NCBI GenBank assembly: GCA_030616605.1
Contig: JAUWWY010000001.1
Span: 68,251-132,250 of the forward strand
DNA length: 64,000 nucleotides
Direction of reading: 5' to 3'
From: a bacterium
GTDB lineage: Bacteria > Patescibacteriota > Minisyncoccia > Minisyncoccales > CG1-02-41-26
Shown here: one piece after another, positions 917 through 63,015 of the stretch
Layout of the letters: each line of letters begins with the position of its first letter
Position numbering within the stretch: position 1 is the first letter of the stretch
Made by a program: the position numbers and the translations under genes
The notes under the pieces: generated by a model
What the model was told of the DNA's origin: nothing
What the model saw: the letters and a program-made list of their open reading frames with translations, nothing else
Databases searched by the model: none

Positions 917-931
917 ACCTTAAAGACCGAA

Positions 932-1043
932 AAATAATTAAATCATAAAATATTATGACAAAAATAGCAAAAACAATTTTATGGGTTGTCATTATAGTTA
1001 TCGTTATTGGAGCAATTTGGTATGGACTAACTAGAAAACCAGC
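932..1043. repeat. 112-nt tract (5' UTR plus signal-anchor codons) identical to 4423..4534
   Basis: Base-by-base comparison of the two loci shows identity that ends abruptly after codon 30 (..aaaaccagc). Confidence 0.9.
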
Positions 1044-2085
1044 TGAGGAAAAAGTGATTAAAATCGGGGCAATTTTATCGCTGACAGGTAAATACGGATA
1101 TTGGGGACAATATAATAAAAAAGGAATAGAATTAGCGGTAGAAGAAATAAATAAACAACTAAAAGACAAAAAGTTAGAGGTGATTTATGAGGATTCACAG
1201 ACAGATGCCGCTACTGGTTTATCGGCTTATAGAAAGTTATCAGATGTTAATAATATTAAAATTTTTGTAGTTGCCCAAGGTACAATTGCAAAAGTTTTAG
1301 CTCCAATAGCTCAAAAAGAAAAAAGAGTAATATTTGCTATTTCGGCTACCACAGCCGGGATACCCGAAACAGGAGATTTTATTTTTAGGAACGATATAAA
1401 TCCAGAAGATGAAATTGATAAATTAATAGAATTTGTTCAAAATAGGAATTACAATAAAGTTGCATTAATGCCAATAAATACAGAGGGTGGGGTTCAGTAT
1501 GCCGAATTATTTAAAGAAAAATTTGAAAAGCTTGATGGAAAAGTTGTGGCTTACGAAAAATACGAGAAAGGTGAAAAAGATTTTAAGACGCAGTTATTAA
1601 AAATCAAAAATACTAACCCCGAAGTAATTTATCCTATTTCTTCTCCAGGAGATATGGCACTAATTTTAAAACAGGCAAATGAATTAGGATTAAAGAAACA
1701 GTTTATATCTGATTTTCATATCGAAGGACCAGAACTTATTTCTGGAGCGGGTGATTTAGCAAATGGCATTGTATATACCCACTCTTTAAACTTAAAAGAT
1801 AACAGACCAAAATTACAAGAATTTATTAATGCCTTTAAAGAAAAATATAAAGAAGAACCAGAATATCAAGCAGCATTAGCATATGATACTATTCGAATTT
1901 TAGGTATGGTAATCAATAAATGTGGAGACAATGAAGATTGTATTAAAAATGACCTGTTGAAAATAAGAAACTTTGAGGGGATAACAGGAATGATTAATAT
2001 TACAGAAATAGGTGATACACAAAAATTAATCATTCTTAAAACCATCAAAAACGGCCAGTTTGTGCCATATGAAGAAAGTGATTAA
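955..2085 (+). CDS. Leu/Ile/Val-type ABC substrate-binding protein, N-terminal TM anchor (paralog 2)
   Basis: 376-aa ORF with the N-terminal anchor MTKIAKTILWVVIIVIVIGAIWYGLTRKPAEE followed by a LivJ/K-like fold (IGAILSLTG, GDFIFRN). It has no lipobox Cys. Confidence 0.85.
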   Translation: MTKIAKTILWVVIIVIVIGAIWYGLTRKPAEEKVIKIGAILSLTGKYGYWGQYNKKGIELAVEEINKQLKDKKLEVIYEDSQTDAATGLSAYRKLSDVNNIKIFVVAQGTIAKVLAPIAQKEKRVIFAISATTAGIPETGDFIFRNDINPEDEIDKLIEFVQNRNYNKVALMPINTEGGVQYAELFKEKFEKLDGKVVAYEKYEKGEKDFKTQLLKIKNTNPEVIYPISSPGDMALILKQANELGLKKQFISDFHIEGPELISGAGDLANGIVYTHSLNLKDNRPKLQEFINAFKEKYKEEPEYQAALAYDTIRILGMVINKCGDNEDCIKNDLLKIRNFEGITGMINITEIGDTQKLIILKTIKNGQFVPYEESD

Positions 2086-2108
2086 GTGATTAAGTCATTA
2101 AGTAATTA
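2077..2108. repeat. 8-bp tandem repeat AGTSATTA x4 spanning the stop codon of paralog 2
   Basis: The sequence reads agtgatta agtgatta agtcatta agtaatta. It adds SD after the PYEE C-terminus found in paralogs 1 and 3. Confidence 0.9.
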
Positions 2109-2115
2109 ATTTATT

Positions 2116-3237
2116 ATGTCTAAAATATTACAGACAATTCTCTGGGTTGTGATTATTGTGGTTGTGGTAGGATTAATTTGGTATGGACTAACTAGAAAGC
2201 CGGCCGAGGAAGAGGTGATTAAGATTGGAGCAGTACTTTCTCTTACTGGTATTGCTCAAAACCACGGGCAGAATAATAGAGAAGGAATAGATTTGGCAGT
2301 AAAAGAAATAAATGAAAGTGGTGGTGTTAATGGTAAAGAAATAAAGGTTATTTATGAAGACGATGCCACTGATTCCAAAAATACAGTTACAATAGTTCAT
2401 AAATTCATAGACATAGACAATGTAGATGTGATTATCGGGCCTACTTGGGATTTTTTAGCAAATGCTGCTATTCCTGTAATTGATAAAGGGAAAAAAGTAA
2501 CGATAACTCCTTCAGTTTTAGGTGATACAATTGAGGTTACTAGTCCTTACTTTTTTTCTACTTTTTCACCAGTAGCTTTTAAACAAAAAACAGTAGAAAA
2601 ATTTTTAGGGGAATTCCGGAATCAAAAGATAGGAATAATGATTATTAATAGTCCTTGGGCAGTAGCCCATTTAGAAACATATAAAAAAGCAATTTTAGCT
2701 ACCAATAATCTTTTGGTTAAAGAGATTATCTTGTCTGAATTTGATAATAATGAAATGAGCACTGAGTTAGCCATTTTAAAAGATTTAAATCTTGATGCTA
2801 TTTTAGTTTGTTTAAATGATTACGATTCAGTTAATTTTCTTAAGAAAGTTAAAGAATTAGATATTCAAGCTAAAATATTAGGCAACGAACATTTTGGTGA
2901 TATACTAAAAAATGGACTTCTAGATATGGATACAGCAGATGGTGTTTACTTTACTGATCTCAGTTTACCCTCTGAAGACTTTATTACAAAGTTTAAAGAA
3001 GTTTATAAAAAAGAACCAGGATTATATTCAGATACTGCTTACGACACCGTTTATTTAATAGCCAAGGTGATTGAAGAATATGGTAGAGATTCAGAAAGTA
3101 TAAGACAAGGATTAAAAAAGATAAAATATAATGGTGTTTCTGGAGAGATTAGTTTTAGCGAAAACAACTACTCTTCTAATAAAGAATTTGAGTTAATTCT
3201 CATCAAAAATGGCCAATTTGTTCCCTATGAGGAATAA
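2116..3237 (+). CDS. Leu/Ile/Val-type ABC substrate-binding protein, TM-anchored (paralog 3)
   Basis: 373-aa ORF with the same anchor/linker module (ILWVVIIVVVVGLIWYGLTRKPAEE) and a C-terminal IKNGQFVPYEE. Confidence 0.85.
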   Translation: MSKILQTILWVVIIVVVVGLIWYGLTRKPAEEEVIKIGAVLSLTGIAQNHGQNNREGIDLAVKEINESGGVNGKEIKVIYEDDATDSKNTVTIVHKFIDIDNVDVIIGPTWDFLANAAIPVIDKGKKVTITPSVLGDTIEVTSPYFFSTFSPVAFKQKTVEKFLGEFRNQKIGIMIINSPWAVAHLETYKKAILATNNLLVKEIILSEFDNNEMSTELAILKDLNLDAILVCLNDYDSVNFLKKVKELDIQAKILGNEHFGDILKNGLLDMDTADGVYFTDLSLPSEDFITKFKEVYKKEPGLYSDTAYDTVYLIAKVIEEYGRDSESIRQGLKKIKYNGVSGEISFSENNYSSNKEFELILIKNGQFVPYEE

Positions 3238-3279
3238 TTAATAAAGGTCGGAAAATAAGTTATTAAATCATAAAATATT

Positions 3280-4401
3280 ATGACAAAAATAGCAAAAACA
3301 ATTTTATGGGTTGTTATTATTGTGGTTGTGATAGGATTAATCTGGTATGGACTAACTAGAAAACCAGCAGAGGAAGTAATTAAAATTGGAGCGATTTTAC
3401 CGTTGACAGGAGAGGCCGCTATAGCCGGGGTAAGTATTCAGCAAGGGATTGAGATAGCAGTAGAAGAAATAAATAAGGCGGGGGGAATTAAGGGTAGGCA
3501 AATAAAGGTAGTTTTTGAGAACGATGAATATGACAATAAAAAGACAGTAACGGCTTCCCAGAAATTAATTAATGTAGATAAAATAGATATTGGTATCGTA
3601 TCGTTTGTTCACGGAGCTAAGGCTGTAATGCCAATTTTTGAGCAGAATAAAATTCCATTGATGGTTGCCTGGGACAGCACCAATGAATTAGAGGAAGGAG
3701 ATTATATTTTTAGCACAGGATTTTCTACTGAATTATCTGGGAAAAAGATGGCTAATTACGCCTATAATGAATTAAATCTTAGAGAGGTTGCTATTGTTTT
3801 ACATCAAGATGAGTGGTCGGAAGCAATTGCCCCTGCTTTTAAACAAAAATTCCAAGAATTAGGCGGAGAGGTTCTATTAGAGGAGAAGGTGGCAATTGGA
3901 GAAAGCGATTTTAAAACTATTATTAGTAAGATAAAATCTAAAAATGCTGATGCTGTATATCTTCCTCTTGTTCCTGTGAATACAGATATGTTTTTGAAAC
4001 AAGCAAAAGAATTAGCACTAAAATCACAAATTCTATCTGGTGATGCTTTAATACCAGATATAATTATGGCAGCGGGTGATGCAGCCGAAGGAGTATATTT
4101 CACAAGTATCTATGTGGAAGATAATGAGATTTCGCAAGCACTTACTGAAAAATATCGAGAGAAATATGGAGAAGAAGCACCAGCCTTACCAATGGTTGCA
4201 TTTGGTTATGATGCTATGTTAGCAATTAAGAGTGCTATTGAATCAGCAGAAGAGATAACACCGGAAGGAATTAAAGATGCATTGTATTCTGTTGATATAA
4301 TAGGAGCTGGTGGTCAAATAAAAATTAGAGCAAATGGTTTATCAGAAAGAATAGAAAAAGTATTTAAAGTTCAGAATGGTGAAGGTATTTTGGTAGAATG
4401 A
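3280..4401 (+). CDS. Leu/Ile/Val-type ABC substrate-binding protein, TM-anchored (paralog 4)
   Basis: 373-aa ORF with a LivJ/K-like body. Its 5' end is a mosaic of the paralog 2/5 start and the paralog 3 TM codons. Confidence 0.85.
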   Translation: MTKIAKTILWVVIIVVVIGLIWYGLTRKPAEEVIKIGAILPLTGEAAIAGVSIQQGIEIAVEEINKAGGIKGRQIKVVFENDEYDNKKTVTASQKLINVDKIDIGIVSFVHGAKAVMPIFEQNKIPLMVAWDSTNELEEGDYIFSTGFSTELSGKKMANYAYNELNLREVAIVLHQDEWSEAIAPAFKQKFQELGGEVLLEEKVAIGESDFKTIISKIKSKNADAVYLPLVPVNTDMFLKQAKELALKSQILSGDALIPDIIMAAGDAAEGVYFTSIYVEDNEISQALTEKYREKYGEEAPALPMVAFGYDAMLAIKSAIESAEEITPEGIKDALYSVDIIGAGGQIKIRANGLSERIEKVFKVQNGEGILVE

Positions 4402-4422
4402 TTAATAAAGGTCGGAAAAAAT

Positions 4423-4534
4423 AAATAATTAAATCATAAAATATTATGACAAAAATAGCAAAAACAATTTTATGGGTTGTCATTATAGTTATCGTTATTG
4501 GAGCAATTTGGTATGGACTAACTAGAAAACCAGC
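4423..4534. repeat. Second copy of the 112-nt 5' cassette (identical to 932..1043)
   Basis: Base-by-base comparison with 932..1043. Confidence 0.9.
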
Positions 4535-5570
4535 AGAAGAGGGAGTAATTAAGATTGGATTTATAGGGCCTCTAACAGGCGATGCAGCAGGTTTAGGTCA
4601 GAATACAAGAGCAGGTGTTGAATTAGCAGTGGAACAGATAAATGAAGCAGGAGGGATAAACGGAAGAAATCTTGAAGTGATTTTTGAGGATGGAATGTGT
4701 AATCCAAAAGAATCAACAAATGCAGCTAATAAATTAGTTAACGTAGATAAAGTGCCGGTGATAATTGGAGGATTGTGTTCCAGTGAAACTTTAGCAGCTG
4801 CTCCTATAGCAGAGAGTGGAAAAACTGTATTATTCTCATCTTGTTCTTCTAACCCAGATGTTACAAATGCTGGTGATTATGTATTTAGAGATTATCCTTG
4901 TGATAGTTTTCAAGGCAAAAAAGCAGCAGAAATTGCTTACGCAGATTTTGAGACAAGAAATGCTGCTATTTTGTATTGTTTAAGTGACTGGTGTGTGGGA
5001 TTAGACCAAATATTTAAAGAAACATTTGAAGGATTAGGTGGAACTATTGTTGCTGAAGAAAGTTATGAACAAACATCCAGAGATTTAAGAACTCAACTAA
5101 CAAAAATTAAAGCTACTAACCCCGAACTTATATATTTTGTTGGTTATACAGAAGCAACAATAGTTGGTTTGAAACAAATAAAGGAATTGGGTATAGAAGC
5201 TACACTTTTAGGTGGTGATGCTTGGGATGATCCGAAAATCCCTGAAGAAGCAGGAGATTCAGCAGAGGGAATATTATACATAAAACCTTTTGCTCCGTTA
5301 ACTGAGGAATTTAAAGCAGCAATGGAAGTTAAGACAGGAACAAAAGATGTTACAATCTGTACACCTCAAGCTTATGATGCAGTATATATTGTGGCCGAAA
5401 TAATGAAGAAAGTAGGAACAGACAGTGAGAAAATTAAAGATGAATTGTATAAAGTTGAGGGTTACGAAGGAGTTTCTGGAACAATTACCCTTGATGAAAA
5501 CGGAGACTTAGCAACGGCAAGTTATATCCTCAAGGTTGTTACGGATGGGGTGGCAGTAGATTATAAATAA
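4446..5570 (+). CDS. Leu/Ile/Val-type ABC substrate-binding protein, TM-anchored (paralog 5)
   Basis: 374-aa ORF carrying IGFIGPLTGDAAGLG and GDYVFRD motifs typical of the LivJ/K family. Confidence 0.85.
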   Translation: MTKIAKTILWVVIIVIVIGAIWYGLTRKPAEEGVIKIGFIGPLTGDAAGLGQNTRAGVELAVEQINEAGGINGRNLEVIFEDGMCNPKESTNAANKLVNVDKVPVIIGGLCSSETLAAAPIAESGKTVLFSSCSSNPDVTNAGDYVFRDYPCDSFQGKKAAEIAYADFETRNAAILYCLSDWCVGLDQIFKETFEGLGGTIVAEESYEQTSRDLRTQLTKIKATNPELIYFVGYTEATIVGLKQIKELGIEATLLGGDAWDDPKIPEEAGDSAEGILYIKPFAPLTEEFKAAMEVKTGTKDVTICTPQAYDAVYIVAEIMKKVGTDSEKIKDELYKVEGYEGVSGTITLDENGDLATASYILKVVTDGVAVDYK

Positions 5571-5610
5571 AACTAACAAAGAACTGTTCTCTGTAGTTTT
5601 TGTCAAAAAA

Positions 5611-5640
5611 GCCCGCCGCCTGTCGCGGCGGGCTTTTTGG
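5611..5640 (+). terminator. Rho-independent terminator
   Basis: A 9-bp GC stem (gcccgccgc / gcggcgggc) with loop ctgtc is followed by a T run. Confidence 0.85.
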
Positions 5641-5669
5641 TTTTCGAAATTTATGCTAGAATATGAAAT

Positions 5670-6374
5670 ATGCTTCAAATACAGAACTTAAAATCTGGCT
5701 ACACAGGAATGGAGATTTTGCACGGGATAAATTTTGAGGTCAGACCAGCAGAGATTGTTGCCTTAATTGGGCCGAATGGAGCAGGAAAGTCAACTCTCTT
5801 AAGGAGTATTTTTAATTTGTGTGAAATTTATTCAGGGAAAGTAATTTTTAAAGACAAAAACATAACTAAGCTTCCAACTCATGAGTTAATTTACCAGGGG
5901 GTAAGCTATGTACCTCAGGGAAGGCAGGTTTTCAGCAACCTGACTGTTAAGGAAAATCTTGAAATGGGAGCCTTTATAATGAAAGACCATGAATTAGTTG
6001 AAAGAAATGTAAAAGATGTTTTCAACAAATTCCCATTTTTAGAAGAAAGACAAAATACCCTCGCCTTAAATCTATCTGGCGGTGAGCAGCAGATGTTAGC
6101 AATTGGCCGAGCCTTAATTCAAGAGCCAGAATTACTTTTATTAGACGAACCCTCTTTAGGACTGGCGCCAAAAATAATGAAAGAAGTTTTTGAAAAAATA
6201 AAAAAGATTAACCAAGAAGGTATAGCCATAATAATTGTTGAACAAAACGCAAAAAAAGCAGTAGAAATTGCCCAGAGAACCTATATTTTAGAGGACGGCC
6301 AAATTGCTCTTCAGGGCGGCCGAGAAATCTTAGAAGACTCACGAATAAAAAATATTTATTTCGGCGGTAGATAA
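5670..6374 (+). CDS. livF: Branched-chain amino acid ABC transporter ATP-binding protein (LivF-like)
   Basis: It has Walker A GPNGAGKST, the signature LSGGEQQ and Walker B LLLLDEP. The 234-aa size is typical of LivF. Confidence 0.85.
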   Translation: MLQIQNLKSGYTGMEILHGINFEVRPAEIVALIGPNGAGKSTLLRSIFNLCEIYSGKVIFKDKNITKLPTHELIYQGVSYVPQGRQVFSNLTVKENLEMGAFIMKDHELVERNVKDVFNKFPFLEERQNTLALNLSGGEQQMLAIGRALIQEPELLLLDEPSLGLAPKIMKEVFEKIKKINQEGIAIIIVEQNAKKAVEIAQRTYILEDGQIALQGGREILEDSRIKNIYFGGR

Positions 6375-6388
6375 TGCTATACTAAAGA

Positions 6389-7507
6389 ATGAATCTTTTT
6401 AAGATTTTTAAACCAAAAAAAAGCGAAGATTTTTTGGTTTTGGACTTTGGCAGAAGTTCGGTTAAGGGTATAATTTTTAGCCCGCCTATTATTAAAAATT
6501 ATCAGGTTGAGAAAATAGAAAGGTTCGGGGTTTTTGACGGAAAAGATTTTGAACTAGATGTTCTTAAAAGAGCAGCCACTAAAGTTATTGATGGTTTAGG
6601 AATCAAAGATGAAATTGCCAGGTTTTCCCAAATAATTAGCTTTTCTCCAGATATTTTAAAGGCTGAAGTCTTTGATTTATCCTACACAAGAGAAAAAGAT
6701 AAAGAGAAAATTGAAAAGAAAGAACAAGAAGAGATTTACCAGTCTATTTTTAAAAAAGCTGAAGAAAAACTTTCCAAGAAGTTCGAAAAAAACCTTCCTG
6801 GACATTTTAAAATTTTAAAAAAGAAAATTTTAGAAGAGAAAATCTCGGGTTACAAAGTTTCTTCAATTTCTAATTTTAAGGGAAAGAATCTGAACTTTAA
6901 AATTTCGGTTATTTTTTGCCCAAGAGATTATTTGAGCTTTATAGATTCTTTAAAAATTTCTTTAGGTTTAGAGAAAGCAAAGATTTATCATATAGTTGAG
7001 GGTTTATTTGATTTAATGCTGAACAATAGCGGAATTTTTGTAAATATCGGAGCTAAAAATACATTAATTGTTTCTTTTAAAAAACAACTTAAGTTTATAG
7101 AAGATTTTCAAATTGGAGGAGCTGACTTTTCAAAAAAGATTTCTGAGACTTTGGGATTAAAAGAAGTTGATGTTGAAAATTTAAAGAAGGATTTTTCTAA
7201 AAACAAATTAAGTGTTAAAGTAAAAAAGAGGTTAGAAGAGATTATTTCTCCGGCTTTGAATTCATGGCAAAGAAAATTTAAGGAAAAACTGGAAATTAGG
7301 GGTAGGACTTTTGATTTTTCTCAAAAAGTTTATCTTTTTGGCGGAGGAAGTCTTCTGCCGGGAATTAAAAAGAAGATTGAAGAACTCGGTGCAAGAAAAA
7401 TAAACTATCTTTTAGCCAAAGACCTACCCTTAAAAAACAAAACAAAAATTTCTTTTTCAGTTGAAGATACTTCCTCACTTTTATTAACCATTTGTAAATA
7501 TTTGTAG
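6389..7507 (+). CDS. Actin-fold ATPase, FtsA/PilM-like
   Basis: It begins LVLDFGRSSVKGIIF (phosphate-1-like) and has a late LFGGGSLLPGI motif, as in FtsA/PilM. The exact family was not resolved. Confidence 0.5.
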   Translation: MNLFKIFKPKKSEDFLVLDFGRSSVKGIIFSPPIIKNYQVEKIERFGVFDGKDFELDVLKRAATKVIDGLGIKDEIARFSQIISFSPDILKAEVFDLSYTREKDKEKIEKKEQEEIYQSIFKKAEEKLSKKFEKNLPGHFKILKKKILEEKISGYKVSSISNFKGKNLNFKISVIFCPRDYLSFIDSLKISLGLEKAKIYHIVEGLFDLMLNNSGIFVNIGAKNTLIVSFKKQLKFIEDFQIGGADFSKKISETLGLKEVDVENLKKDFSKNKLSVKVKKRLEEIISPALNSWQRKFKEKLEIRGRTFDFSQKVYLFGGGSLLPGIKKKIEELGARKINYLLAKDLPLKNKTKISFSVEDTSSLLLTICKYL

Positions 7508-7511
7508 ATAA

Positions 7512-8759
7512 ATGAAAATAAAGATTTTTGACATTTTACCTCCCAAAGAGAAAAGAAAAGAAATAATTTCTAAAAAAGTTCATAAGAAAATTTCTCTTAA
7601 AAAGTTTCCCTTTAATTTATTAATAGGTCTGATTTTAATTTTTGGCTTAGGTTTTTTAATATGGATTACTTCTGGTTTTTATTCAAAATTATTTTTGGAG
7701 ATTCAGCCAAAAACAGAGACAGAAGTTTTTACTGAAGAAATTGAAATTAATATAACGCAGTCTTTCCCAGAATTTGAAAATAAAATTATTCCGGGAAGAT
7801 TTTTTGAAGTAGAAAAAGAAAAACAGCAAATTTTTGAATCTACAGGAAAAGATTTTACTAAGGAGAAAGCAGAAGGTACTATTAGAGTTTATAATTTTCA
7901 GAATCCTCCGAGAGCAATTAATCTTCAATCTAGAACTCGCTTTCTTTCCTCAGAAGGGGGTAAGATTTTCAGGTGTCCAGATAAAATATACTTGCCGCCA
8001 GCTCAAATTCAAGAAGGAAAAGTTGTTCCCAGTTTTAAAGATGTCAAGGTTATAGCTCAAGAAGCAGGAGAAGATTACAATATAGAGGCTTCCAATTTTT
8101 CTCTTCCTGGTCTTGTTGGAACTGCTTTGTATTACACTATTTATGCTGAATCCGAATCTCCAATGACCGGCGGTTTTGAAAAAGAGATTAAGGTAATAAC
8201 AGAAGAGGATTTAGAGGATGCGGAGAATATCTTAAAAGAAAGTCTGGAAAGATTAGCAAAAAATTCTTTAAAAGATAAACTTCCTGAAGATTTTATTCTG
8301 GCCAATGAATTTTTATTTATAGAAGATTTTGAACTTTCTTGTATGGAAGAAGCAGGAGAGAAAGTTTCTAAATTTAGTTGTCAGGCTAAAATGAAGCTTA
8401 AGGGATTGGGTTTTAAATTTTCCGATTTAGAAGAAATTGCAATCAGTTTTATTTCTTCACGTCTTCCTTCTTCAAAAAATCTTGATAGACAGAGTCTAAT
8501 TTTAGATTTATTTCCCAAAAATTTACTTTCGGAAACCGGAAAAATGATTTCTGATCTTGAAGTTAAAGTAAATGTCTATGATAAAATATCAGAAGAGATT
8601 CTTCTTTCTCAAATTAAGGAAAAATCTGAGACACAAATAAGAAATATTATTTTAAAGAATTATCCTCAGATTGAAAATATAAACTTTAACTTTTGGCCAT
8701 TTTGGGTTAAAGAAGCTCCAAATTCTTTGGAGAGGATAAAAATTGAGATAAAACCTTAA
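7512..8759 (+). CDS. Hypothetical membrane-anchored protein (415 aa)
   Basis: A long ORF lies 4 nt after the FtsA/PilM-like gene. It has one N-terminal TM segment (LLIGLILIFGLGFLIWITSGF). No family was recognised. Confidence 0.6.
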   Translation: MKIKIFDILPPKEKRKEIISKKVHKKISLKKFPFNLLIGLILIFGLGFLIWITSGFYSKLFLEIQPKTETEVFTEEIEINITQSFPEFENKIIPGRFFEVEKEKQQIFESTGKDFTKEKAEGTIRVYNFQNPPRAINLQSRTRFLSSEGGKIFRCPDKIYLPPAQIQEGKVVPSFKDVKVIAQEAGEDYNIEASNFSLPGLVGTALYYTIYAESESPMTGGFEKEIKVITEEDLEDAENILKESLERLAKNSLKDKLPEDFILANEFLFIEDFELSCMEEAGEKVSKFSCQAKMKLKGLGFKFSDLEEIAISFISSRLPSSKNLDRQSLILDLFPKNLLSETGKMISDLEVKVNVYDKISEEILLSQIKEKSETQIRNIILKNYPQIENINFNFWPFWVKEAPNSLERIKIEIKP

Positions 8760-9176: not shown

Positions 9177-9566
9177 ATGCCACGTATTGCCGGTATAAAC
9201 ATACCAGAAAATAAACAAATTGAGGTTGCTTTAACCTCTATTTATGGAATAGGGAGGTCTTTGGCTTTAAAAATTTTAAAAAAAACCAATGTTAATCCAA
9301 TGAAAAAAGCAAAAGATTTAACTGAAAAAGAAGTTTCTGATTTAAGAAAAATTATAGAAGAAAATCATAAAGTAGAAGGCGACCTCAAACGAGAGATAAT
9401 GGGGAGTATAAAGCGGTTAAAAGAGATTAAATGCTGGCGCGGAATTCGCCATTCTAAAGGATTGCCAGTCCGGGGTCAGAAAACAAGGAAAAATTCAAGG
9501 ACAATCAGAAAGAATATAAGAAGAACGGTGAGTTCAGGTCGAAAAGCGCCGCCAGCACCAAAGTAA
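9177..9566 (+). CDS. rpsM: 30S ribosomal protein S13
   Basis: It opens MPRIAGINIPENKQIEVALTSIYGIGRS, and the gene order is canonical. Confidence 0.95.
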   Translation: MPRIAGINIPENKQIEVALTSIYGIGRSLALKILKKTNVNPMKKAKDLTEKEVSDLRKIIEENHKVEGDLKREIMGSIKRLKEIKCWRGIRHSKGLPVRGQKTRKNSRTIRKNIRRTVSSGRKAPPAPK

Positions 9567-9582
9567 AAATAAAAGTAAAAAC

Positions 9583-10035
9583 ATGGGAAAGAAACGTATC
9601 GTTAAAAAAACTGAAAAAGAGCTTTTAGAAGAAAAAGAAAAAGTTGACCAGAAATTAAAAAAAGACATTTCGCTAAAACCCTTAGAAAGAGTAGGAAGGG
9701 GAAGAATTTATATTTCTTCAACCTACAACAATACCATTATTACTTTGACTGACCAATTAGGAAATGTTTTACTTTGGAGAAGCGCTGGCAATATTGGTTT
9801 TAAGGGGACAAAGAAAGGAACTTCTTATGCTGCTTCTCGAGTTGCCCAAGCAATTGCTGAAATTTGTAATAGGCTAAAAATAAAAGAAGTTGATGTTTTT
9901 GTGAAAGGAATTGGGGGAGGAAGAGATACTGCTTTGAGAACTTTGTCAAATCAAGGGTTGGAAATTGAAAGTATTCGAGATGTTACACCGATTCCCCACA
10001 ACGGCTGTCGACCACGAAAACCCCGGAGGGTATAA
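9583..10035 (+). CDS. rpsK: 30S ribosomal protein S11 with Lys/Glu-rich N-terminal extension
   Basis: It contains the core GRIYISSTYNNTIITLTD..G and FKGTKKGTSYAA, and ends RPRKPRRV. Confidence 0.95.
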   Translation: MGKKRIVKKTEKELLEEKEKVDQKLKKDISLKPLERVGRGRIYISSTYNNTIITLTDQLGNVLLWRSAGNIGFKGTKKGTSYAASRVAQAIAEICNRLKIKEVDVFVKGIGGGRDTALRTLSNQGLEIESIRDVTPIPHNGCRPRKPRRV

Positions 10036-10745: not shown

Positions 10746-11702
10746 ATGATTTCATTACCCAATCAACCAAAAATTATCCAAAAAAAAGATAACAAAGCTA
10801 TTTTTGAAATTGAACCGTTGTATCCTGGCTATGGAGTAACTGTTGTTAACACCTATCGCCGAGTTTTACTCTCTTCCTTAGAAGGAGCAGCTATTACCCA
10901 AGTTAAAATTAAAGGAGTTAGCCATGAATTTTCAACTATTCCCGGAGTTTTGGAAGATGTAGTTATGATTTTACTCAATTTAAAAAGAATAAGGCTTAAG
11001 AATTGGAGCGAAGAACCTCAAACTATTACTCTTCATGTTAAGGGCGAAAAAGAAGTAAAAGCTAAGGATTTTAAATTAAATCCTCAAATAAAGTTAGCAA
11101 ATCCAGAAGCCCATATTGCAACACTAACCGAAAAAAAAGCAGAACTTCAAATTGAAGCTAAAATTGAAAAAGGAGTTGGTTATCTTTTATTAGAAGAGAG
11201 AGAAGAGAAAAAAGGTGAAATAGGTGTAATTATGATAGATGCTATTTTTAGTCCGGTAAAAAAAGTGAGTTTCAAAATAGAAAATGTAAGAGTAGGGAAA
11301 AGAACTGACTTTGAAAGATTAGAATTAAAAATTGAAACTGATGGTGTCATAACGCCAGAAGAAGCCTTTTCTCAAGCAACAGATATTTTAGTTGATCACT
11401 TTTCTCTTTTTTCAAAGTTTGGAAAAGAAGAAAAAGTAGCAAAAAAAGCTCCGGATACCAAAACCACAGTGGCTAAAGAAAAAAAAGAAAGCAAAAAAAA
11501 GGATGTTAAAAAAATAGAGATTGAGAGTTTGAAAATTTCTGAAAGAACTAAAAATTCTTTATTGCAAAACAATCTGAAAACAATTGGTGGAATTTTAAGA
11601 AAATCAGAAACAGATCTTTTAAATATTAAAAGTATGGGAGAAAAAGGAATTAAGGAAATAAAGAAAGCATTAAAGAAATTCGGTTTAGAATTGAAAGAAT
11701 AA
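10746..11702 (+). CDS. rpoA: DNA-directed RNA polymerase subunit alpha
   Basis: It has an N-terminal dimerisation domain (GYGVTVVNTYRRVLLSS) and a C-terminal HhH domain (SERTKNSLLQNNLKTIGGIL). Confidence 0.95.
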   Translation: MISLPNQPKIIQKKDNKAIFEIEPLYPGYGVTVVNTYRRVLLSSLEGAAITQVKIKGVSHEFSTIPGVLEDVVMILLNLKRIRLKNWSEEPQTITLHVKGEKEVKAKDFKLNPQIKLANPEAHIATLTEKKAELQIEAKIEKGVGYLLLEEREEKKGEIGVIMIDAIFSPVKKVSFKIENVRVGKRTDFERLELKIETDGVITPEEAFSQATDILVDHFSLFSKFGKEEKVAKKAPDTKTTVAKEKKESKKKDVKKIEIESLKISERTKNSLLQNNLKTIGGILRKSETDLLNIKSMGEKGIKEIKKALKKFGLELKE

Positions 11703-19015: not shown

Positions 19016-20092
19016 ATGCTTTTGACAATTTTAGTTATATTCTTAACTTTAATTATTCTCTTAGTTTTGCACGAACTTGGTCATTTTATATTAGCTAAAA
19101 AATTTGGAGTAAAAGTTGAAGAATTTGGAATTGGTTATCCACCCCGAATATTCGGCAAAAAATTTGGAGAAACAATATATTCAATAAACCTTTTGCCTTT
19201 TGGCGCTTTTGTCAAAATCACTGGAGAAGAAGGGGAAGTTGACGACCCCCGCAGTTTTTCCCAGAAACCTCTTCGGCAAAGAGCTTCAATAATTTTAGGA
19301 GGGGTTGTTTCTTTTTGGATAATCGCTTTTTTGATTTTCAGCTTAATTGCTGGCGTCTGGGGTTTACCCCATGCTGTGTCTGACGATTTTCAAGGAAAAG
19401 CTCAAGTTCAGATTATTGAAATTGCTAAAGATTCTCCAGCTGAACTTGCTGGAATAAAAGCTGGCGACAAAATAATAGAGCTCAAAGCTCAAAGCTCAAA
19501 GCTCAAAATTAATAAAGTAAAGGAAATTCAGGAGTTCACTAATATTTATAAAGGAAAGGAAATTGTTCTTACCCTAAAAAGAGCTGAGGAGTTTTTAGAT
19601 GTTTCTTTAATTCCTCGGGTTTCACCGCCAGAAGGAGAGGGAGCAATTGGGATTGGTTTAGCAAGGGTGGCAAAAATTAAATATCCCTGGTATCAGGCGC
19701 CTTACATCGGAGCGAGAGTTACCTTTCAGAAGACCTGGCAAATTCCGGTTGTTTTAGGAAATCTTTTTCAGAAATTTTTAAAAGGAGAAAAAGTTCAGGG
19801 AGTTGAATTAGTGGGACCGATTGGCATAGGAAAAATAATGGGTCAATCACTAAAACTTGGGATAGATAATTTTTTAATGGTTGTTGGACTGATTGCTGTT
19901 TGGTTAGCTTTATTTAATGCTTTACCAATTCCGGCTTTGGATGGTGGGAAATTTTTATTCTTAGTAATTGAAGGTATTAGAAAAAAACCGATTTCTCAAG
20001 AAATCGAGCAAAAGATTACTATTTCCTTTTTTCTTGTTTTAATTCTTTTAATGATTTTTGTTACAGTAAAGGATGTTATAAGGTTATTCTAA
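19016..20092 (+). CDS. rseP: Site-2 (M50) zinc metalloprotease RseP-like with PDZ domain
   Basis: It has HELGHF, a PDZ segment (GIKAGDKIIEL), NALPIPALDGG, and multiple TM segments. Confidence 0.85.
   Translation: MLLTILVIFLTLIILLVLHELGHFILAKKFGVKVEEFGIGYPPRIFGKKFGETIYSINLLPFGAFVKITGEEGEVDDPRSFSQKPLRQRASIILGGVVSFWIIAFLIFSLIAGVWGLPHAVSDDFQGKAQVQIIEIAKDSPAELAGIKAGDKIIELKAQSSKLKINKVKEIQEFTNIYKGKEIVLTLKRAEEFLDVSLIPRVSPPEGEGAIGIGLARVAKIKYPWYQAPYIGARVTFQKTWQIPVVLGNLFQKFLKGEKVQGVELVGPIGIGKIMGQSLKLGIDNFLMVVGLIAVWLALFNALPIPALDGGKFLFLVIEGIRKKPISQEIEQKITISFFLVLILLMIFVTVKDVIRLF
19480..19507. repeat. 7-bp tandem repeat GCTCAAA x4 inside rseP (PDZ region)
   Basis: The sequence is gctcaaa x4 exactly and encodes ..KAQSSKLKI.. 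Confidence 0.9.
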
Positions 20093-22693: not shown

Positions 22694-24130
22694 ATGAAGG
22701 TTGAAGATTTGACAATAAAAAATATCCATCAGGGATTGCTAAAAAAAGAATTTTCGGCAAGCGAAATAACCCAGGCTTATTTAGATAGAATAAAATCTCA
22801 AGATGAAAAAATTAATGCTTTTTTAAGAATATCTGAAGATTTAGCTTTAACTCAAGCTGAAAAAGTAGATCAATTGATTTCTGAGGGTAAAAGCATTTCT
22901 GTTTTGGCTGGTGTCCCAATGGCTATAAAAGATAATATTTTAGTGAAAGATTTAAAGTCCACTGCTGGTTCAAAAATTCTTGAAAATTATATAGCACCCT
23001 TTGATGCGACTTGCATTAAAAAATTAAAAAAAGCAGAAACTGTATTTTTGGGCAAAACAAATTTAGATGAGTTTGGTATGGGTGCCTCAACCGAAAATTC
23101 GGCTTTTAAGAAAACCTTTAACCCCCATGACTTAAGTAGAGTACCCGGTGGTTCTTCAGGTGGTTCAGCAGCAGCAGTGGCTAATAATGAATGTTGTTGT
23201 GCCTTAGGTTCTGATACCGGCGGTTCAGTTCGTCAACCTGCTTCTTTTTGTGGAGTGGTAGGATTAAGACCAACTTATGGAGCTGTTTCCCGTTATGGTT
23301 TAATTGCTTTTGCTTCCTCTCTGGACCAAATAGGACCAATAGCTAAAAATATTGAGGATGCTAAAATTATTTTTGATATTATAAAAGGAAAGGATGAAAA
23401 AGATTCAACAAGTGTGGAAACTCAGTCATTCAGTCATTCAGTCACTCAGTCACTCAGTGATTTAGTGATTGGAGTTCCAAAAGAATATTTTAAAGAAGGA
23501 ATTGATAAAGAGGTTAGAGAAGCAATAGAAAAAGTAATTAAAAAAGCAGAAAAACAAGGAGCAAAAATTGAAGAAGTTCCTTTGGCTCATACCAAATATG
23601 CCTTAGCTTGTTATTATCTTATTTCACCCTCTGAAGCCAGCGCTAATTTAGCCAGATACGATGGAATAAGATATGGAAAGTCAGAAATAGAAAACCCTGA
23701 AATTCAGAGTCTGATGGATGTTTATCTAAAAACAAGAGGAGAGGGATTTGGAGTTGAGGTTAAAAGAAGAATAATGTTGGGCACTTACGCTCTTTCAGCT
23801 GGATATTATGACGCTTATTATCTAAAAGCCCAAAAAGTAAGGACTTTGATTAAACAGGATTTTGAAGAAGCTTTTAAAAAAGTTGATGTTATTTTTACGC
23901 CGGTTTCTCCAACTTTACCTTTTAAAATCGGAGAAAGAAAAAAGGACCCTTTACAGATGTATCTTTCAGATGTTTTAACTGTTTCGGCTGGTTTAGCAGG
24001 AATTCCCGCTCTTTCATTACCTGTTGAAAAAGTTAAGGGTTTACCGATTGGTCTTCAAATTATTGGAAAACCCTTTCAAGAATCAGAAATTTTTAAAGTC
24101 GGACAATTCGTTGAAAAATTAGTTCACTAA
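22694..24130 (+). CDS. gatA: Asp/Glu-tRNA amidotransferase subunit A
   Basis: It carries the amidase signature GGSSGGSAAAVA..GSDTGGSVRQPASFCG. Confidence 0.95.
   Translation: MKVEDLTIKNIHQGLLKKEFSASEITQAYLDRIKSQDEKINAFLRISEDLALTQAEKVDQLISEGKSISVLAGVPMAIKDNILVKDLKSTAGSKILENYIAPFDATCIKKLKKAETVFLGKTNLDEFGMGASTENSAFKKTFNPHDLSRVPGGSSGGSAAAVANNECCCALGSDTGGSVRQPASFCGVVGLRPTYGAVSRYGLIAFASSLDQIGPIAKNIEDAKIIFDIIKGKDEKDSTSVETQSFSHSVTQSLSDLVIGVPKEYFKEGIDKEVREAIEKVIKKAEKQGAKIEEVPLAHTKYALACYYLISPSEASANLARYDGIRYGKSEIENPEIQSLMDVYLKTRGEGFGVEVKRRIMLGTYALSAGYYDAYYLKAQKVRTLIKQDFEEAFKKVDVIFTPVSPTLPFKIGERKKDPLQMYLSDVLTVSAGLAGIPALSLPVEKVKGLPIGLQIIGKPFQESEIFKVGQFVEKLVH
23421..23460. repeat. 8-bp tandem repeat (YTCAGTSA, core AGTCAYTC) x5 inside gatA
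   Basis: The sequence is ctcagtca ttcagtca ttcagtca ctcagtca ctcagtga and encodes TQSFSHSVTQSLSD. Confidence 0.9.
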
Positions 24131-24806: not shown

Positions 24807-24877
24807 CGCGGGGTGGAGAAGTAGTATCTTATCAGGCTCATAACCTGAAGACCCGGGTGCAATTCCCGGCCCCGCAA
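24807..24877 (+). tRNA. tRNA-Met (CAU), initiator-like (C1:A72 mismatch), atypical D and T loops, no encoded CCA
   Basis: Manual cloverleaf: cgcgggg|tg|gaga|agtagta|tctt|a|tcagg|ctCATaa|cctga|agac|ccggg|tgcaatt|cccgg|ccccgca|a. Confidence 0.75.
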
Positions 24878-24918
24878 ATAAAGCTCTTACTTTCTTTTTT
24901 GAAAGTGAAAAGGGTAAT

Positions 24919-24990
24919 GCCGGTGTAGCTTAGTGGTTGAAGTGGGGCTCTCATAAGGCCTAGATGAAGGTTCGATTCCTTCCACCGGCA
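24919..24990 (+). tRNA. tRNA with CAU anticodon (elongator Met or Ile2/lysidine type), no encoded CCA
   Basis: Manual cloverleaf: gccggtg|ta|gctt|agtggttg|aagt|g|gggct|ctCATaa|ggcct|agat|gaagg|ttcgatt|ccttc|caccggc|a. Confidence 0.85.
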
Positions 24991-24994
24991 TAAT

Positions 24995-25072
24995 GCAGCC
25001 GTAGCTTAGCTGGCTTAAAGCGCCTTCCTGTCACGAAGGAGATCGTGGGTTCAAATCCCATCGGCTGCGCCA
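24995..25072 (+). tRNA. tRNA-Asp (GUC) with encoded CCA
   Basis: The manual cloverleaf has acceptor gcagccg/cggctgc, anticodon arm ccttc|ctGTCac|gaagg, T arm gtggg|ttcaaat|cccat and a gcca end. Confidence 0.9.
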
Positions 25073-36933: not shown

Positions 36934-38979
36934 ATGCTATTTTCCTACAATTGGTTACAAGATTATATTAAGGAAAAACTATTTCCAGCAGAGAAACTGG
37001 CTGAGATTTTAACTAGGCACAGTTTTGAGATAGAAGATGTTAAAAAGAGAGGTAAAGATTGGCTTTTAGATATTGATGTTTTACCAAATCGAGGAGCTGA
37101 CTGTTTTTCTCATTTGGGTATTGCCCGTGAAATAGCAGTAATAACAAACAGTAAGTTCCAAGTTCCAAGTTCCAAGTTTCAAGAAAGTAGCAAATTAAAA
37201 GCAAGAGATTTCATAAAATTAGAAGTTAAAAATAAAGCTGATTGCCCCCGTTATACCGGTAAAGTAATTTTGGGGATAAAAGTAGGTTCAGCGCCTAAAT
37301 GGATTCAAGAAAGATTAAAAGCTTGCGGCCTCCAGCCAATTAATAATATCGTTGATATAGCTAATTACGTGATGTTGGAGACTGGTGAACCAATTCATGC
37401 CTTTGACCTTGATAAGATTGAAAAGAAAATTATTGTCAGAAGAGCCCAAAAAGGAGAAAGAATAAAGGCCTTAGATGACAAAAGCTATAGCTTAGATAGA
37501 GACATTTTAGTAATAGCAGACGAGAAAGGACCAATTGCCATTGCTGGAATAAAAGGAGGGGAAAAAACTGGCATTGATTCTAAAACAAAAAATATAGTTA
37601 TTGAAGCAGCTAATTTCAATCAAAAAGTTATTCGTCAGGGTTCCAGAAAATTGAAACTAAGAACAGATGCTTCTTTGCGGTTTGAGAATGGAATTGACCC
37701 AAACTTGATTGACTCTGCTCAAGAAAGAATTGTCTCTTTAATTCAAGAAATAGCTGGTGGGAAAATCGCAAAAGGATTAATAGGCTTTTATCCAAATAAA
37801 GTCCGGCCCAAGAAAATAAATCTTGATTTAAATTACAGCGAAAAACTATTAGGTATCAAAGTTCCAAAACAAAAAGCGATAAAAATCCTAAAATCTTTAG
37901 GTTTCCAATCTTACGAGGTTGAGCCTCGTGAGATTGTAGTGGAGGTACCGACCAGAAGATTAGATGTTTCAATTCAGGAAGATTTAATTGAAGAGATAGG
38001 AAGGATTGTCGGTTTCCAGAATATTCCTTCAGCTTTTCCTCAGGCAGCTTTGATTTCTCCAGAAAAAAATCAAGAACTGTTTTGGCAGAAAAATATAAAA
38101 GATATTTTAAAAGAAATAGGATTCTCTGAAGTTTATAATTACTCTTTTATAGGAGAGAAAGAAGAAGATATTTTTGGTTGGAAAACAGCTGAGTTAATAG
38201 AATTAGAAAATCCAATGAGTTCTTTTAATAAATATTTGAGGCCAAGTTTGATTCCAAATTTACTGAAAAATATTAGAGAAAACTTAAAGTTTGTTAGCGA
38301 AATAAAAATTTTTGAGATTGGAAAAATCTTTATCAAGAAAAAAAGTTTATTGGAAAAGGAAATGTTAGCAGGGATTTTAACGAGAAAGGGGATAAAAGAT
38401 GAGGGTTTTTATGAGTTGAAGGGGATAGTTGATTCTTTGCTCAATAAATTAGGGATAAGCAATATTTGGTATGATGAATATCAGTCAACCCCTGAAGAGT
38501 CAAAATTGACTCATTGGCATCCTTCAAAATGTGCTGAGATTAAGAGTGATGGAGAAGAAATTGGCTTTTTGGGAGAAATTTCTCCAAAAATTTTAGAAGA
38601 TTTAAGAATTAAAGAAAAGGTCTTTGTTTTTGATTTGGATTTTGAAAAGTTGCTGAAATTAGTTTCCGAGGAACATGAATATCAACCAATTTCTCTTTTT
38701 CCAACAGCAGTTAGAGATTTGGCTGTTTTAGTTCCCCAAGGGACAAAAGTAGTAACGCTTTTGAATAGAATAAATTCAGCTGGGGGAAAATTAGTTCGGG
38801 ATGTTGACCTTTTTGATGTTTATCAAGGAAGGGAGATTCCCAGAAATAAAGAAAATTTTGCTTTTCATATAATTTATCAAGCTGAAGATAGAACTTTGTC
38901 TTCAAAAGAAATTGATAAAATACATCAGAAAATAATTAAAGCCCTGGAAGAAAATCCTGAATGGGAAGTAAGGAAGTAA
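36934..38979 (+). CDS. pheT: Phenylalanyl-tRNA synthetase beta subunit (681 aa, compact)
   Basis: It opens MLFSYNWLQDYI, contains B3/4 and B5 segments and an FDX-ACB-like C-terminus (FDVYQG...K.S.AF.I.YQ). Confidence 0.9.
   Translation: MLFSYNWLQDYIKEKLFPAEKLAEILTRHSFEIEDVKKRGKDWLLDIDVLPNRGADCFSHLGIAREIAVITNSKFQVPSSKFQESSKLKARDFIKLEVKNKADCPRYTGKVILGIKVGSAPKWIQERLKACGLQPINNIVDIANYVMLETGEPIHAFDLDKIEKKIIVRRAQKGERIKALDDKSYSLDRDILVIADEKGPIAIAGIKGGEKTGIDSKTKNIVIEAANFNQKVIRQGSRKLKLRTDASLRFENGIDPNLIDSAQERIVSLIQEIAGGKIAKGLIGFYPNKVRPKKINLDLNYSEKLLGIKVPKQKAIKILKSLGFQSYEVEPREIVVEVPTRRLDVSIQEDLIEEIGRIVGFQNIPSAFPQAALISPEKNQELFWQKNIKDILKEIGFSEVYNYSFIGEKEEDIFGWKTAELIELENPMSSFNKYLRPSLIPNLLKNIRENLKFVSEIKIFEIGKIFIKKKSLLEKEMLAGILTRKGIKDEGFYELKGIVDSLLNKLGISNIWYDEYQSTPEESKLTHWHPSKCAEIKSDGEEIGFLGEISPKILEDLRIKEKVFVFDLDFEKLLKLVSEEHEYQPISLFPTAVRDLAVLVPQGTKVVTLLNRINSAGGKLVRDVDLFDVYQGREIPRNKENFAFHIIYQAEDRTLSSKEIDKIHQKIIKALEENPEWEVRK
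37153..37180. repeat. 7-bp tandem repeat AAGTTCC x4 inside pheT
   Basis: The sequence is aagttcc aagttcc aagttcc aagtttc and encodes SKFQVPSSKFQ. Confidence 0.9.
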
Positions 38980-45501: not shown

Positions 45502-46170
45502 ATGAAAAAATTTAATCCAGCTAAAATTATTGACCATACCAATATAAAAGCTAATGCCTCAGCCAAGGAAATAAAGAAAACCTGTCAAGAAGCCAAAAAG
45601 TATGGTTTCCGGGGAGTTTGTGTTAATACACGATGGACAAAGCTAGTAAGTGAAGAATTAAAGAAGACAAAAATTAAAACAGTGGTTTTAATTGATCCAC
45701 CACTGGGATTAAGTTCTCATCCAAAAAGAGTTGAGTTATCTAAACAGGTTAAAAAAGACGGGGCGGACGAGTTAGATATTGTTATAAATGTCATTGATAT
45801 AAAATACGAAAGATACAATGAAGTTTTAGAGGATTTAAAGGAAATCAGTAAAATTTTACCCACTAAAGTTATTATTGGCTCTGGTTATTTAACCAATAAA
45901 GAGATTGAAAAAGCTTCAGAATTAGTTAAGAAAGCCGGAGCTTTTTGTGTTAAAACAGCAACTGAAAAAGACCCTTTAGGACATATTGAGTTGGAAGAAA
46001 AGGCCCGCCACTTAAAAATTATGAAAGAGTCGGCTCCTGGTTTAAAAATTAAAGCGGCCGGGAAAATCAGGACATTCAAGGACGTTCAAATGATGGTTAA
46101 AGCCGGTGCTGATATTATAGGTACAAGTTCAAGTCTTGAGATAATGAGAGAATACAGAAGAAGTCACTAA
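45502..46170 (+). CDS. deoC: Deoxyribose-phosphate aldolase-like class I aldolase
   Basis: Motifs are IDHTNIK, VCVN, GADELDIVINV, a Schiff-base Lys context FCVKTAT, and IKAAGKIR. Confidence 0.7.
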   Translation: MKKFNPAKIIDHTNIKANASAKEIKKTCQEAKKYGFRGVCVNTRWTKLVSEELKKTKIKTVVLIDPPLGLSSHPKRVELSKQVKKDGADELDIVINVIDIKYERYNEVLEDLKEISKILPTKVIIGSGYLTNKEIEKASELVKKAGAFCVKTATEKDPLGHIELEEKARHLKIMKESAPGLKIKAAGKIRTFKDVQMMVKAGADIIGTSSSLEIMREYRRSH

Positions 46171-46185
46171 GTCACTTAGTCACTT
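46162..46185. repeat. 8-bp tandem repeat AGTCACTW x3 spanning the deoC stop codon
   Basis: The sequence is agtcacta agtcactt agtcactt. It belongs to the same core family as 2077 and 23421. Confidence 0.9.
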
Positions 46186-63013: not shown

Positions 63014-63015
63014 TT

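Follow-up and report, generated by a model that had tools for sequence, protein, structure and literature searches.

Tandem arrays with repeat units of 7 or 8 nt are far more frequent than expected in a 64,000-nt stretch of a patescibacterial genome (contig JAUWWY010000001.1, positions 68,251 to 132,250; this whole stretch is hereafter called the window), whose GatA homologs point to a Nealsonbacteria-like member of the Parcubacteria within the Candidate Phyla Radiation (CPR). Three of these arrays, built of an octamer with the core AGTSAYT and located inside gatA and at two gene junctions, had been flagged in an earlier, sequence-only reading as a possible genome-wide repeat element. Our analysis suggests that the three loci are ordinary members of the 7-/8-nt tandem-array population of this genome and belong to the class of long-unit simple sequence repeats (SSRs). 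It is likely that such arrays are born by slippage, grow in place, are filtered by selection on reading frame and stop codons, and persist or recur via seeds anchored in conserved codons.

The flagged element itself is of little weight, since short tandem repeats of this kind are known from bacteria. In CPR genomes, however, about 40% of such arrays lie within essential genes, where reading in all three frames creates peptides with a period of 7-8 residues in loops and C-terminal tails. The GatA linker and other permissive sites may serve as natural recorders of the insertion spectrum of a lineage, and codon-anchored seeds could generate recurrent look-alike expansions that are mistakable for conserved motifs or homology. 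These aspects bear on annotation, on phylogenies of CPR proteins built from alignments, and on why slippage in bacteria favours a 7-8-nt register and halts at approximately 4-5 units.

Octamer arrays within a population of 7- and 8-nt repeats

Array calling by Tandem Repeats Finder (TRF) at period 8 gave 4.2 copies for array A, 6.1 for array B and 3.5 for array C. The three arrays are as follows.

Array A, 2077-2108, + strand: four octamers (AGTGATTA, AGTGATTA, AGTCATTA, AGTAATTA) at the junction of two tandem Peripla_BP_6 solute-binding paralogs
Array B, 23421-23470, + strand: in frame within gatA (TRF 23422-23470, 6.1 copies, 90% matches)
Array C, 46162-46185, followed by AAGT to 46189, + strand: AGTCACTA, AGTCACTT, AGTCACTT at the deoC-gatB junction

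All three tandem octamer loci described previously were found in the sequence, with stop codons as claimed. The gatA array had been given as five units at 23421-23460; the start and the units were correct, but the array continues to 23470 and comprises six units. The arrays are located either inside one open reading frame (ORF), gatA, or in 20-30-nt gaps separating co-directional genes, and the host genes were assigned by Pfam to Peripla_BP_6 (two paralogs), DeoC, GatB_N plus GatB_Yqey, and an Amidase-family GatA.

At both junctions the array contains a stop codon and rewrites the end of a protein. The TAA stop of ORF 955-2085 (2083-2085) lies within array A, which lengthens its C-terminus from PYEE* to PYEESD*, and the next ATG is at 2116. 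Similarly, the deoC TAA stop (46168-46170) lies within array C, where the usual basic tail …KRRKK* is replaced by …RRSH*, and 46185 lies 5 nt before the gatB ATG at 46191. Array B is composed of AGTCATTC and AGTCACTC (two units each), AGTGATTT and AGTGATTG, i.e., 6 units, 48 nt or 16 codons; at its 3′ end, AGTGATTT is followed by AGTGATT up to 23470. It is translated as TQSFSHSVTQSLSDLV, which forms a variable linker flanked by DSTS and IGVPKEY of the Pfam Amidase/GatA protein, and its final two units encode the conserved S-D-L-V-I-G of GatA. Units of the type CAGTCAYT are stop-free in every frame on the sense strand, with stops on the complementary strand. The commonest unit is TGAT plus TGAG, which produces stops in all three frames on one strand and leaves the other strand open. 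Because the opposite strand of the unit stops in all three frames, CAGTCAYT is the sense strand in gatA.

As tandem arrays, the octamer loci are far beyond chance. A total of 7-9 arrays of period 7 or 8 with at least three copies are present in the window, compared with approximately 0.25 in dinucleotide shuffles (per-shuffle means of 0.10 for period 7 and 0.15 for period 8); this corresponds to an excess of about 30-fold, and none of the 40 shuffles matched the observed count. The same scan detected no arrays with at least three copies at periods 3, 6 or 12 in the window. Counted together, the window has at least nine arrays of 7- or 8-nt units, the three octamer loci included.

A similar period spectrum is observed in relatives. 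In 736 kb of low-GC Parcubacteria loci fetched via GatA and DeoC, 84 period-7 and 33 period-8 arrays were found versus 38 at all remaining periods, although some of these loci are near-duplicates and the counts are not fully independent. The period-7/8 arrays had a median of 4.5 copies and 32 nt (interquartile range 30-35), and 47 of the 117 (approximately 40%) were within long ORFs as called mechanically. The density of 7-8-nt arrays in reduced CPR genomes is approximately 16 per 100 kb, whereas loci with a GC content of at least 0.45 showed a 2.5-fold lower density in the same scan (16 of 25 arrays at periods 7/8). Array length is narrow at both period 7 and period 8 in the window and the low-GC CPR loci (L001-L006, L127-L215); the lower bound is partly due to the TRF score threshold, and the scarcity of longer arrays is nonetheless real. 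In addition, a scan for AGTSAYTN x3 was performed over 185,579 species genomes, and all cross-phylum figures in this text are those among the matches listed. Such triplets are present in many phyla, with Melainabacteria (Gastranaerophilales), the sister group of cyanobacteria, occurring frequently. In 851 kb around these matches, arrays located more than 150 bp away again comprised 63 of period 7 and 34 of period 8 versus 26 of other periods. The cross-phylum arrays are mostly intergenic (98/111), with a median distance of 46 nt to a converging stop versus 154 nt to a start.

These features agree with those of long-unit SSRs: units of 5-11 nt are arranged head-to-tail in at least three copies, the excess is specific to a period of about 7, and arrays of variable length and sequence occur at the same locus in relatives (gatA linker, gatA site 2 and the deoC-gatB junction).

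Orthologous sites and growth in place

The gatA linker array occurs at the identical site in loci L001 (97% protein identity), L002/3 (74%), L004 (69%) and L005/6 (68%). In L004 it consists of four perfect copies of ACTCAGTC, and the linkers of L001, L002/3 and L005/6 are variants. It had been considered that orthologs might instead carry ordinary non-repetitive sequence encoding the same amino acids; this is not so, and the orthologs carry the repeat itself, in frame in every case examined. Over 39 nt of the array, the window is 82%, 92% and 79% identical to L002, L004 and L005, respectively, compared with 75%, 71% and 70% for the remainder of gatA and 57%, 53% and 53% at third codon positions. 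In L002 the peptide is kept though AGT has changed to TCT. The suggestion that the array is a mutational hotspot was borne out in part: in a close-strain comparison comprising one strain (L001, 96% nucleotide identity) and gatA only, differences were approximately three times denser in the array (6/50 nt) than elsewhere (51/1387; Fisher p=0.012), whereas the number of units was equal (six) and no length change of the frameshift type was present. The gatA array thus shifts among a few permitted variants (S at position 4, Y at position 6 and N at position 8) without drifting off.

The fill of the GatA linker differs by lineage and includes GAAATTC x4-5, AAATYCC x4, CTTGAAA x4, the octamer CATTAAAA x4, or GC-rich palindromic inserts. 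In most CPR relatives a periodic peptide leads into the conserved [ND]L[KRV]IG, and in non-CPR bacteria the canonical VPDFTKAL…GLKIG is kept. Linkers of the octamer type are scattered on a neighbour-joining tree of GatA, which is crude and poorly resolved. The GatA linker is a permissive site. A second site in the same gene contains an unexpanded unit in the window:

Single AAAGTCA, 23675-23683, + strand: unexpanded seed (GG-AAAGTCA-GAA, G-K-S-E) in gatA, directly after the conserved RYDGIRYG

At this position (gatA site 2), L005 has AAAGTCA x5.7, and L002/L003 and L163/L164 have AATGTCA x4.4-4.7. The unit tracks the codons of each lineage (G-K-S versus G-M-S), indicating that the arrays have grown from a local seed held by coding constraint.

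The deoC-gatB junction shows comparable recurrence. The array reads AGTCACTG, AGTCACTA, AGTCACTT, GATGACTT in L214/215 (83% DeoC identity), consists of AGTCATTA-type units followed by AATCACTY units in L210-213 (80%), is degenerate in L208/209, and is absent from L207, the closest relative (90%). Several DeoC proteins end with …KKSLSH*, which is the translation of the array. Recurrence at this junction and at the gatA linker may be explained by the same seed-anchored process as at gatA site 2, without any function. With regard to array A, a conserved spacer of approximately 40 nt is common to three of the four junctions between the solute-binding paralogs, and the array stands in its place at 2085/2116; the closest ortholog (P0242, 71% identity, locus L276) has a PYEE-TAA end and an ordinary spacer. 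Because the conserved spacer is replaced here and the array is absent from the closest ortholog, array A is a recent, derived and lineage-specific gain.

Further arrays of the window are also located inside ORFs:

AGCTCAA x4.1, 19479-19507, + strand: 100% perfect, inside an M50 peptidase ORF; three-frame reading ELKAQSSKLK
AAGTTCC x4.4, 37153-37183, + strand: inside PheT; peptide SKFQVPSSKFQES
TAGTTTG x5.1 as read on the + strand (coding strand CAAACTA), 51650-51685, - strand: inside the MiaB-like radical-SAM ORF 50640-51875
ATCAAAA x4.3, 59309-59338, + strand: inside an RNase HII ORF
AAAAATT x4.7, 62434-62466, + strand: inside a TrmD ORF

In PheT, SKFQVPSSKFQES of the window aligns with zero length change to NEFKVPDIKFQED (L154) and SKLQVPKFKLKEA (L208), and L154 pheT DNA already holds two units (AAAGTTCCA…AAATTTCAAG). 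Period-7 self-identity is 0.88 in the window versus 0.42 in orthologs. Since the length is unchanged and self-identity is higher, a quasi-repeat was perfected in place and no foreign DNA was inserted. In-place growth is thus observed at two sites, gatA site 2 and pheT. The AGCTCAA array of the M50 peptidase corresponds to a net insertion of 4 amino acids relative to the L005 ortholog.

Two observations on these loci are of separate interest. GC-rich palindromic in-frame inserts occur within the AT-rich gatA of relatives, both in linkers (L151, L152, L193 and L135) and after KEYF (P0029, P0031, P0037 and others). Examples include CCTGCCTACCGGCAGGCAGG ('PTGRQV', found again as TMPTGRQVKGID at a second site), GTCATTCTGAGCGAAGCGAAGAATC… ('HSERSEES') and GAGGTCCGACCTC x2; by analogy with Rickettsia palindromic elements (RPEs), they look like tiny palindromic elements entering coding sequence. 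In addition, L210, which has a long deoC-gatB array, contains intein-containing gyrB and dCMP-deaminase genes (L210:1-2841 and 4711-6696; Pfam Intein_splicing and LAGLIDADG_3).

Origin of the arrays and competing explanations

The favoured explanation may be outlined as follows. A local sequence of 7-8 nt, often in a block of conserved codons, would be copied one register up- or downstream via primer-template misalignment during replication, either by slippage or by templated correction of a quasi-repeat. Repeated events would expand and homogenise the array up to a plateau of approximately 4-5 units (about 32 nt). Harmful arrays would be purged by selection. Those that survive would occupy either short gene junctions, changing the stop codon and the C-terminal residues, or permissive loops of proteins, which require a net length divisible by 3 and a sense strand that is stop-free in all three frames. 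Because arrays in loops must avoid stops in all frames, the gatA units would be AGTCAYTC and not the stop-containing AGTGATTR. The same or a similar unit could appear at one site in distant lineages because conserved codons hold its seed in place and neighbouring units keep re-templating the array. Of the three roles proposed earlier, only one, the footprint of a repeat-seeding process tolerant of coding sequence, fits the evidence, although the process is broader and involves many different 7- and 8-nt units.

Several points weigh against this explanation. All three well-scoring period-8 arrays of the window carry the core, whereas heptamer units are diverse, and p values of 0.015-0.05 for core sharing (see below) leave room for a genuine unit preference. 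The octamer family is found at several loci per genome in other phyla, where, in a sample that was chosen for carrying the unit, 16 of the 34 distant period-8 arrays differ from the core at no more than one position. Array A has weak similarity to the ancestral paralog spacer (shuffle p=0.07-0.09), and no local seed was evident for array C on comparison with L207. The gatA array is 79-92% identical across lineages in which third positions are near saturation, but between close strains it accumulates differences faster than the remainder of gatA. Such a pattern is not predicted by neutral slippage alone, and seed anchoring plus homogenisation would have to account for it. We infer that anchored seeds underlie the deep nucleotide conservation, and any reason for the 7-8-nt register would be of the same standing. 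Polymerase slippage as the enzymatic step is likewise suggested by seeds growing in place and by the perfection of quasi-repeats.

The identity of the core at three loci had been regarded as not expected, which was an overstatement. Exact 7-mers are common to every pair of the three arrays, but outside the arrays, single copies of AGTSAYT (12 in the window) are at chance level. Two-unit matches with up to two mismatches outside the three arrays numbered 8 versus 4.4±2.1 expected, i.e., near chance; therefore, exactly three loci of this unit are present in the window, without a halo of degenerate copies. In the 736 kb of relatives, the octamer was found nowhere except at the orthologous gatA linker and deoC-gatB junction, and the notion of a genome-wide repeat element with one core is not supported. 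A naive estimate of approximately 1e-5 for sharing rested on a consensus defined after the fact. In a fairer null, arrays were seeded from random 8-mers of the window, units and variants were kept equal in number, and any rotation on either strand was accepted; the probability that at least two of the three array pairs have a common exact 7-mer was 0.015, and that of at least five invariant consensus columns was 0.049. Core sharing by three arrays is thus suggestive but not compelling, and the shared core is probably partly coincidence and partly the result of similar seeds, with no mark of a dedicated element. A core GT[CG]A common to heptamers as well was also considered and rejected: it is present in 3 of 40 CPR units versus 1.9 expected, and a modest excess was found only in the octamer-selected sample.

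Two other explanations assign the shared unit a cause of its own, and even together they are considerably less probable than growth in place. The arrays might constitute one dispersed family whose copies move from locus to locus through ectopic template switching or gene conversion, as a tiny mobile element, or through a transposon with 8-bp target duplications. Such a family would agree with the 7-mers common to each pairwise comparison, with array A being young yet built of array B units (AGTGATT and AGTCATT), with an array C that has no obvious local seed, with the recurrence of the unit inside genomes of other phyla, and with the insertion sequences found at fixed distances from octamer arrays in Geobacter metallireducens (PMC2700814). 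However, no flanking sequence, terminal repeats or target duplications are common to the arrays, the window has no extra or degenerate copies above chance, sharing is only at p≈0.015 under the fair null, and two other sites have clearly grown from local seeds. A small mobile repeat resembling miniature inverted-repeat transposable elements, repetitive extragenic palindromic sequences or RPEs was not recognised in the window, where shared flanks are absent, the loci number three and degenerate copies do not exceed chance. Transposon target duplication would leave such footprints only after several rounds of insertion and excision at a single site, and no remnants of an element are present. In a viral collection, AGTGATTN x3 occurred at 24 loci versus 19, 5 and 12 for three composition-matched shuffled octamers, i.e., it was favoured at most approximately 2-fold, so that a single universal cross-phylum family finds little support. 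Overall, a dispersed family is unlikely. An origin of array A from the ancestral paralog spacer was also set aside, the alignment scores being marginal only.

The arrays might also be recognition sites, either operator- or centromere-like sites for a small polymerising DNA-binding protein or an RNA element coupling the expression of gatCA and gatB. The unit is near-palindromic (AGT-S-ACT), a gat gene is involved at two of the three loci, each of which is conserved at orthologous sites, the nucleotide identity of the gatA array exceeds that of the surrounding gene across deep lineages, and cross-phylum arrays lie nearer to gene 3′ ends than to starts. Ribbon-helix-helix proteins bind contiguous arrays of 2-10 near-palindromic operator units, such as the 7-bp heptads WATCACW of omega repressors and the 8-bp met boxes of MetJ (AGACGTCT). 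The reverse complement of AGTGATT, AATCACT, fits WATCACW, but the period is 8 here and 7 in omega heptads, and the unit does not match the met box. In addition, the present arrays are situated within an essential ORF and in 20-30-nt co-directional gaps and apparently not upstream of promoters. No cognate protein was identified, the small ORFs of the window not having been screened for ribbon-helix-helix domains. The locus at the solute-binding junction is a recent lineage-specific gain unrelated to gat, array C is missing from the closest relative, unrelated heptamers occupy the gatA linker in other lineages, and the AGT to TCT change in L002 with the peptide kept indicates constraint at the level of protein and not of DNA. 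The idea of a protein- or RNA-recognition array, put forward earlier, also finds no support in RNA features: at the Rfam gathering threshold, only five tRNAs were detected in the window and no family overlaps any array; minimum free energies (MFEs) of the arrays are -1.1, -4.3 and -3.0 kcal/mol, and folding is no better than that of shuffled-unit arrays. We therefore consider recognition arrays rather improbable. A more specific version, in which AGTGAYTN/AGTCAYTN arrays are a sequence-specific cross-phylum element that is made or bound by a conserved factor, favours gene 3′ ends, and is kept in Nealsonbacteria at the gatA linker and upstream of gatB for cis action on expression of the split GatCAB amidotransferase, appears highly unlikely.

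Three related candidates were rejected. A gene-end element providing stops in all three frames (AGTGATTG = TGAT+TGAG) seemed to be indicated by an orientation bias of 31:14, which is circular because ORFs ending inside an array must read a stop there; without the circular cases it becomes 18:13, which is not significant. Shine-Dalgarno-like motifs (GGTGAT/AGTGAT) have the wrong spacing to start codons in array A and are in the opposite sense in array C. With respect to hairpin-promoted expansion, six-unit arrays folded with DNA parameters gave fractions of 0.4-1.0 of shuffles at or below the observed energy, and arrays of AGTGATTG and AGTCATTC had an MFE of 0.

Phase variation based on SSRs is well established in other bacteria, and the arrays could be contingency loci in which the gain or loss of one octamer switches gatA off or alters C-termini. 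An 8-nt unit is not divisible by 3, and thus a change by a single unit would shift the frame. Nevertheless, the hosts are essential single-copy housekeeping genes (GatA, PheT, M50, RNase HII and TrmD) as opposed to surface or restriction-modification genes, the arrays are short, with 3-6 units each, every ortholog examined is in frame, and the number of units is equal in the single 96%-identical strain, so that this role has very little probability. An assembly or polishing artefact, or adapter contamination, is practically excluded. The Illumina TruSeq adapter contains ...CTCCAGTCAC, and part of it resembles CTCAGTCAC. Yet these arrays are found again at identical positions in independent samples assembled with different tools (Logan, MEGAHIT k141, SPAdes NODE and JGI contigs), all host ORFs are intact and in frame, and point substitutions between lineages are like those of real sequence.

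Known repeat systems and additional observations

Heptameric SSRs are over-represented in many bacterial genomes (Mrazek 2007 as cited in Rehm et al. 2015, PMC4692102). Xanthomonas has approximately 186 GGGAATC arrays, mostly of four units and often in inverted pairs, and in related species these arrays are flanked by the same genes and vary in length and sequence; GGGGAYT arrays of Nostoc are a further long-unit SSR example, and a GTGATTA heptamer has been reported in H. pylori (Rehm et al. 2015, PMC4692102). The function of heptamer SSRs is unknown, and the standing hypothesis is polymerase slippage tied to the polymerase footprint (PMC4692102). The arrays described here resemble those of Xanthomonas and Nostoc in their head-to-tail units (7 nt there, 7 and 8 nt here), approximately four units per array, and many loci per genome; as in Xanthomonas, they recur at orthologous positions with variable length and sequence (gatA and deoC-gatB), and inverted intergenic pairs are present in the relative L005. 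In contrast, the units here are AT-rich and unable to form G-quadruplexes, the heptamers are highly diverse and do not constitute one family, and about 40% of arrays lie inside housekeeping ORFs, translated in three frames, in a CPR host with a reduced genome.

In G. metallireducens, dispersed intra- and intergenic families of 4-5 tandem hepta- or octanucleotides have been described, such as GGGACCG x4 at 49 sites, GTTGCTYN x4, MTYCTGA x5 and TWGTTGAY (PMC2700814). These are similar to the present arrays in having 4-5 units of 7/8 nt, intergenic and intragenic locations, several loci per unit and no known function. However, Geobacter families have tens of copies and conserved opposite-strand pairing and were interpreted as regulator binding sites, whereas here three loci occur in 64 kb, with no pairing and another consensus. 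The median of approximately 4.5 copies is close to the 'mostly four units' of Xanthomonas and Geobacter. Literal literature searches for the present unit found nothing.

The short tandemly repeated repetitive (STRR) sequences of cyanobacteria are dispersed, intergenic tandem heptanucleotides with 7-nt units of defined sequence; the flagged arrays are likewise dispersed tandem arrays but have 8-nt units and belong to a CPR genome. Schoelmerich and coworkers are said to have described in 2023 that, in Borg elements, perfect nucleotide tandem repeats in ORFs yield amino-acid tandem repeats. In both cases, repeats within ORFs create new low-complexity, probably disordered, protein segments. Borg in-ORF units are multiples of 3, whereas those described here are 7 or 8 nt and are read in all three frames, which gives peptides with a period of 7 or 8 residues.

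The relative L005 is notably rich in arrays, with the perfect AAAGTCA x5.7 in its gatA and inverted array pairs in intergenic regions. Inverted heptamer pairs are located between genes at 8338-8438, 9898-9991, 11430-11524, 2460-2568 and 9516-9609 of this locus, such as CTCAAAA x6.9 followed by TTTGAGC x6.3 and AAGTTAA x7.7 followed by TAACTTT x4.9. They could possibly fold into long periodic, terminator-like hairpins between genes.

Much longer arrays of the octamer, with 11-18 perfect units, were found in some non-CPR genomes and one Uhrbacteria genome (L050:2129-2271, L092:7897-7999, L023:7071-7165 and L038:3434-3520); among them, a metagenome-assembled genome of Metamycoplasmataceae has AGTCACTC x18 within a 143-aa ORF. 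Arrays of 11-18 units might behave unlike the short arrays described here, for example as phase-variable loci.

The window has several other features. Five tandem Peripla_BP_6 paralogs are located at 8-5570, the first truncated by the window edge, with near-identical N-terminal signal/anchor regions (MTKIAKTILWVVIIV…), and the last is followed by a GC-rich, strong intrinsic-terminator-like hairpin at approximately 5600-5645. At the 3′ end of ORF 61273-61632, an 18-nt unit (CAAAAGAGAAAGAGAAGC) is repeated 4.6 times with 94% identity (61538-61621); ORF 59854-60147 has purine-rich repeats of the AGAAA type at 60038-60108. Both of these repeats are triplet-compatible and K/E-rich, and form a class distinct from the 7/8-nt arrays. 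The tRNA genes occur in two clusters, one of three tRNAs (24807-25069) and one of two (62931-63088).

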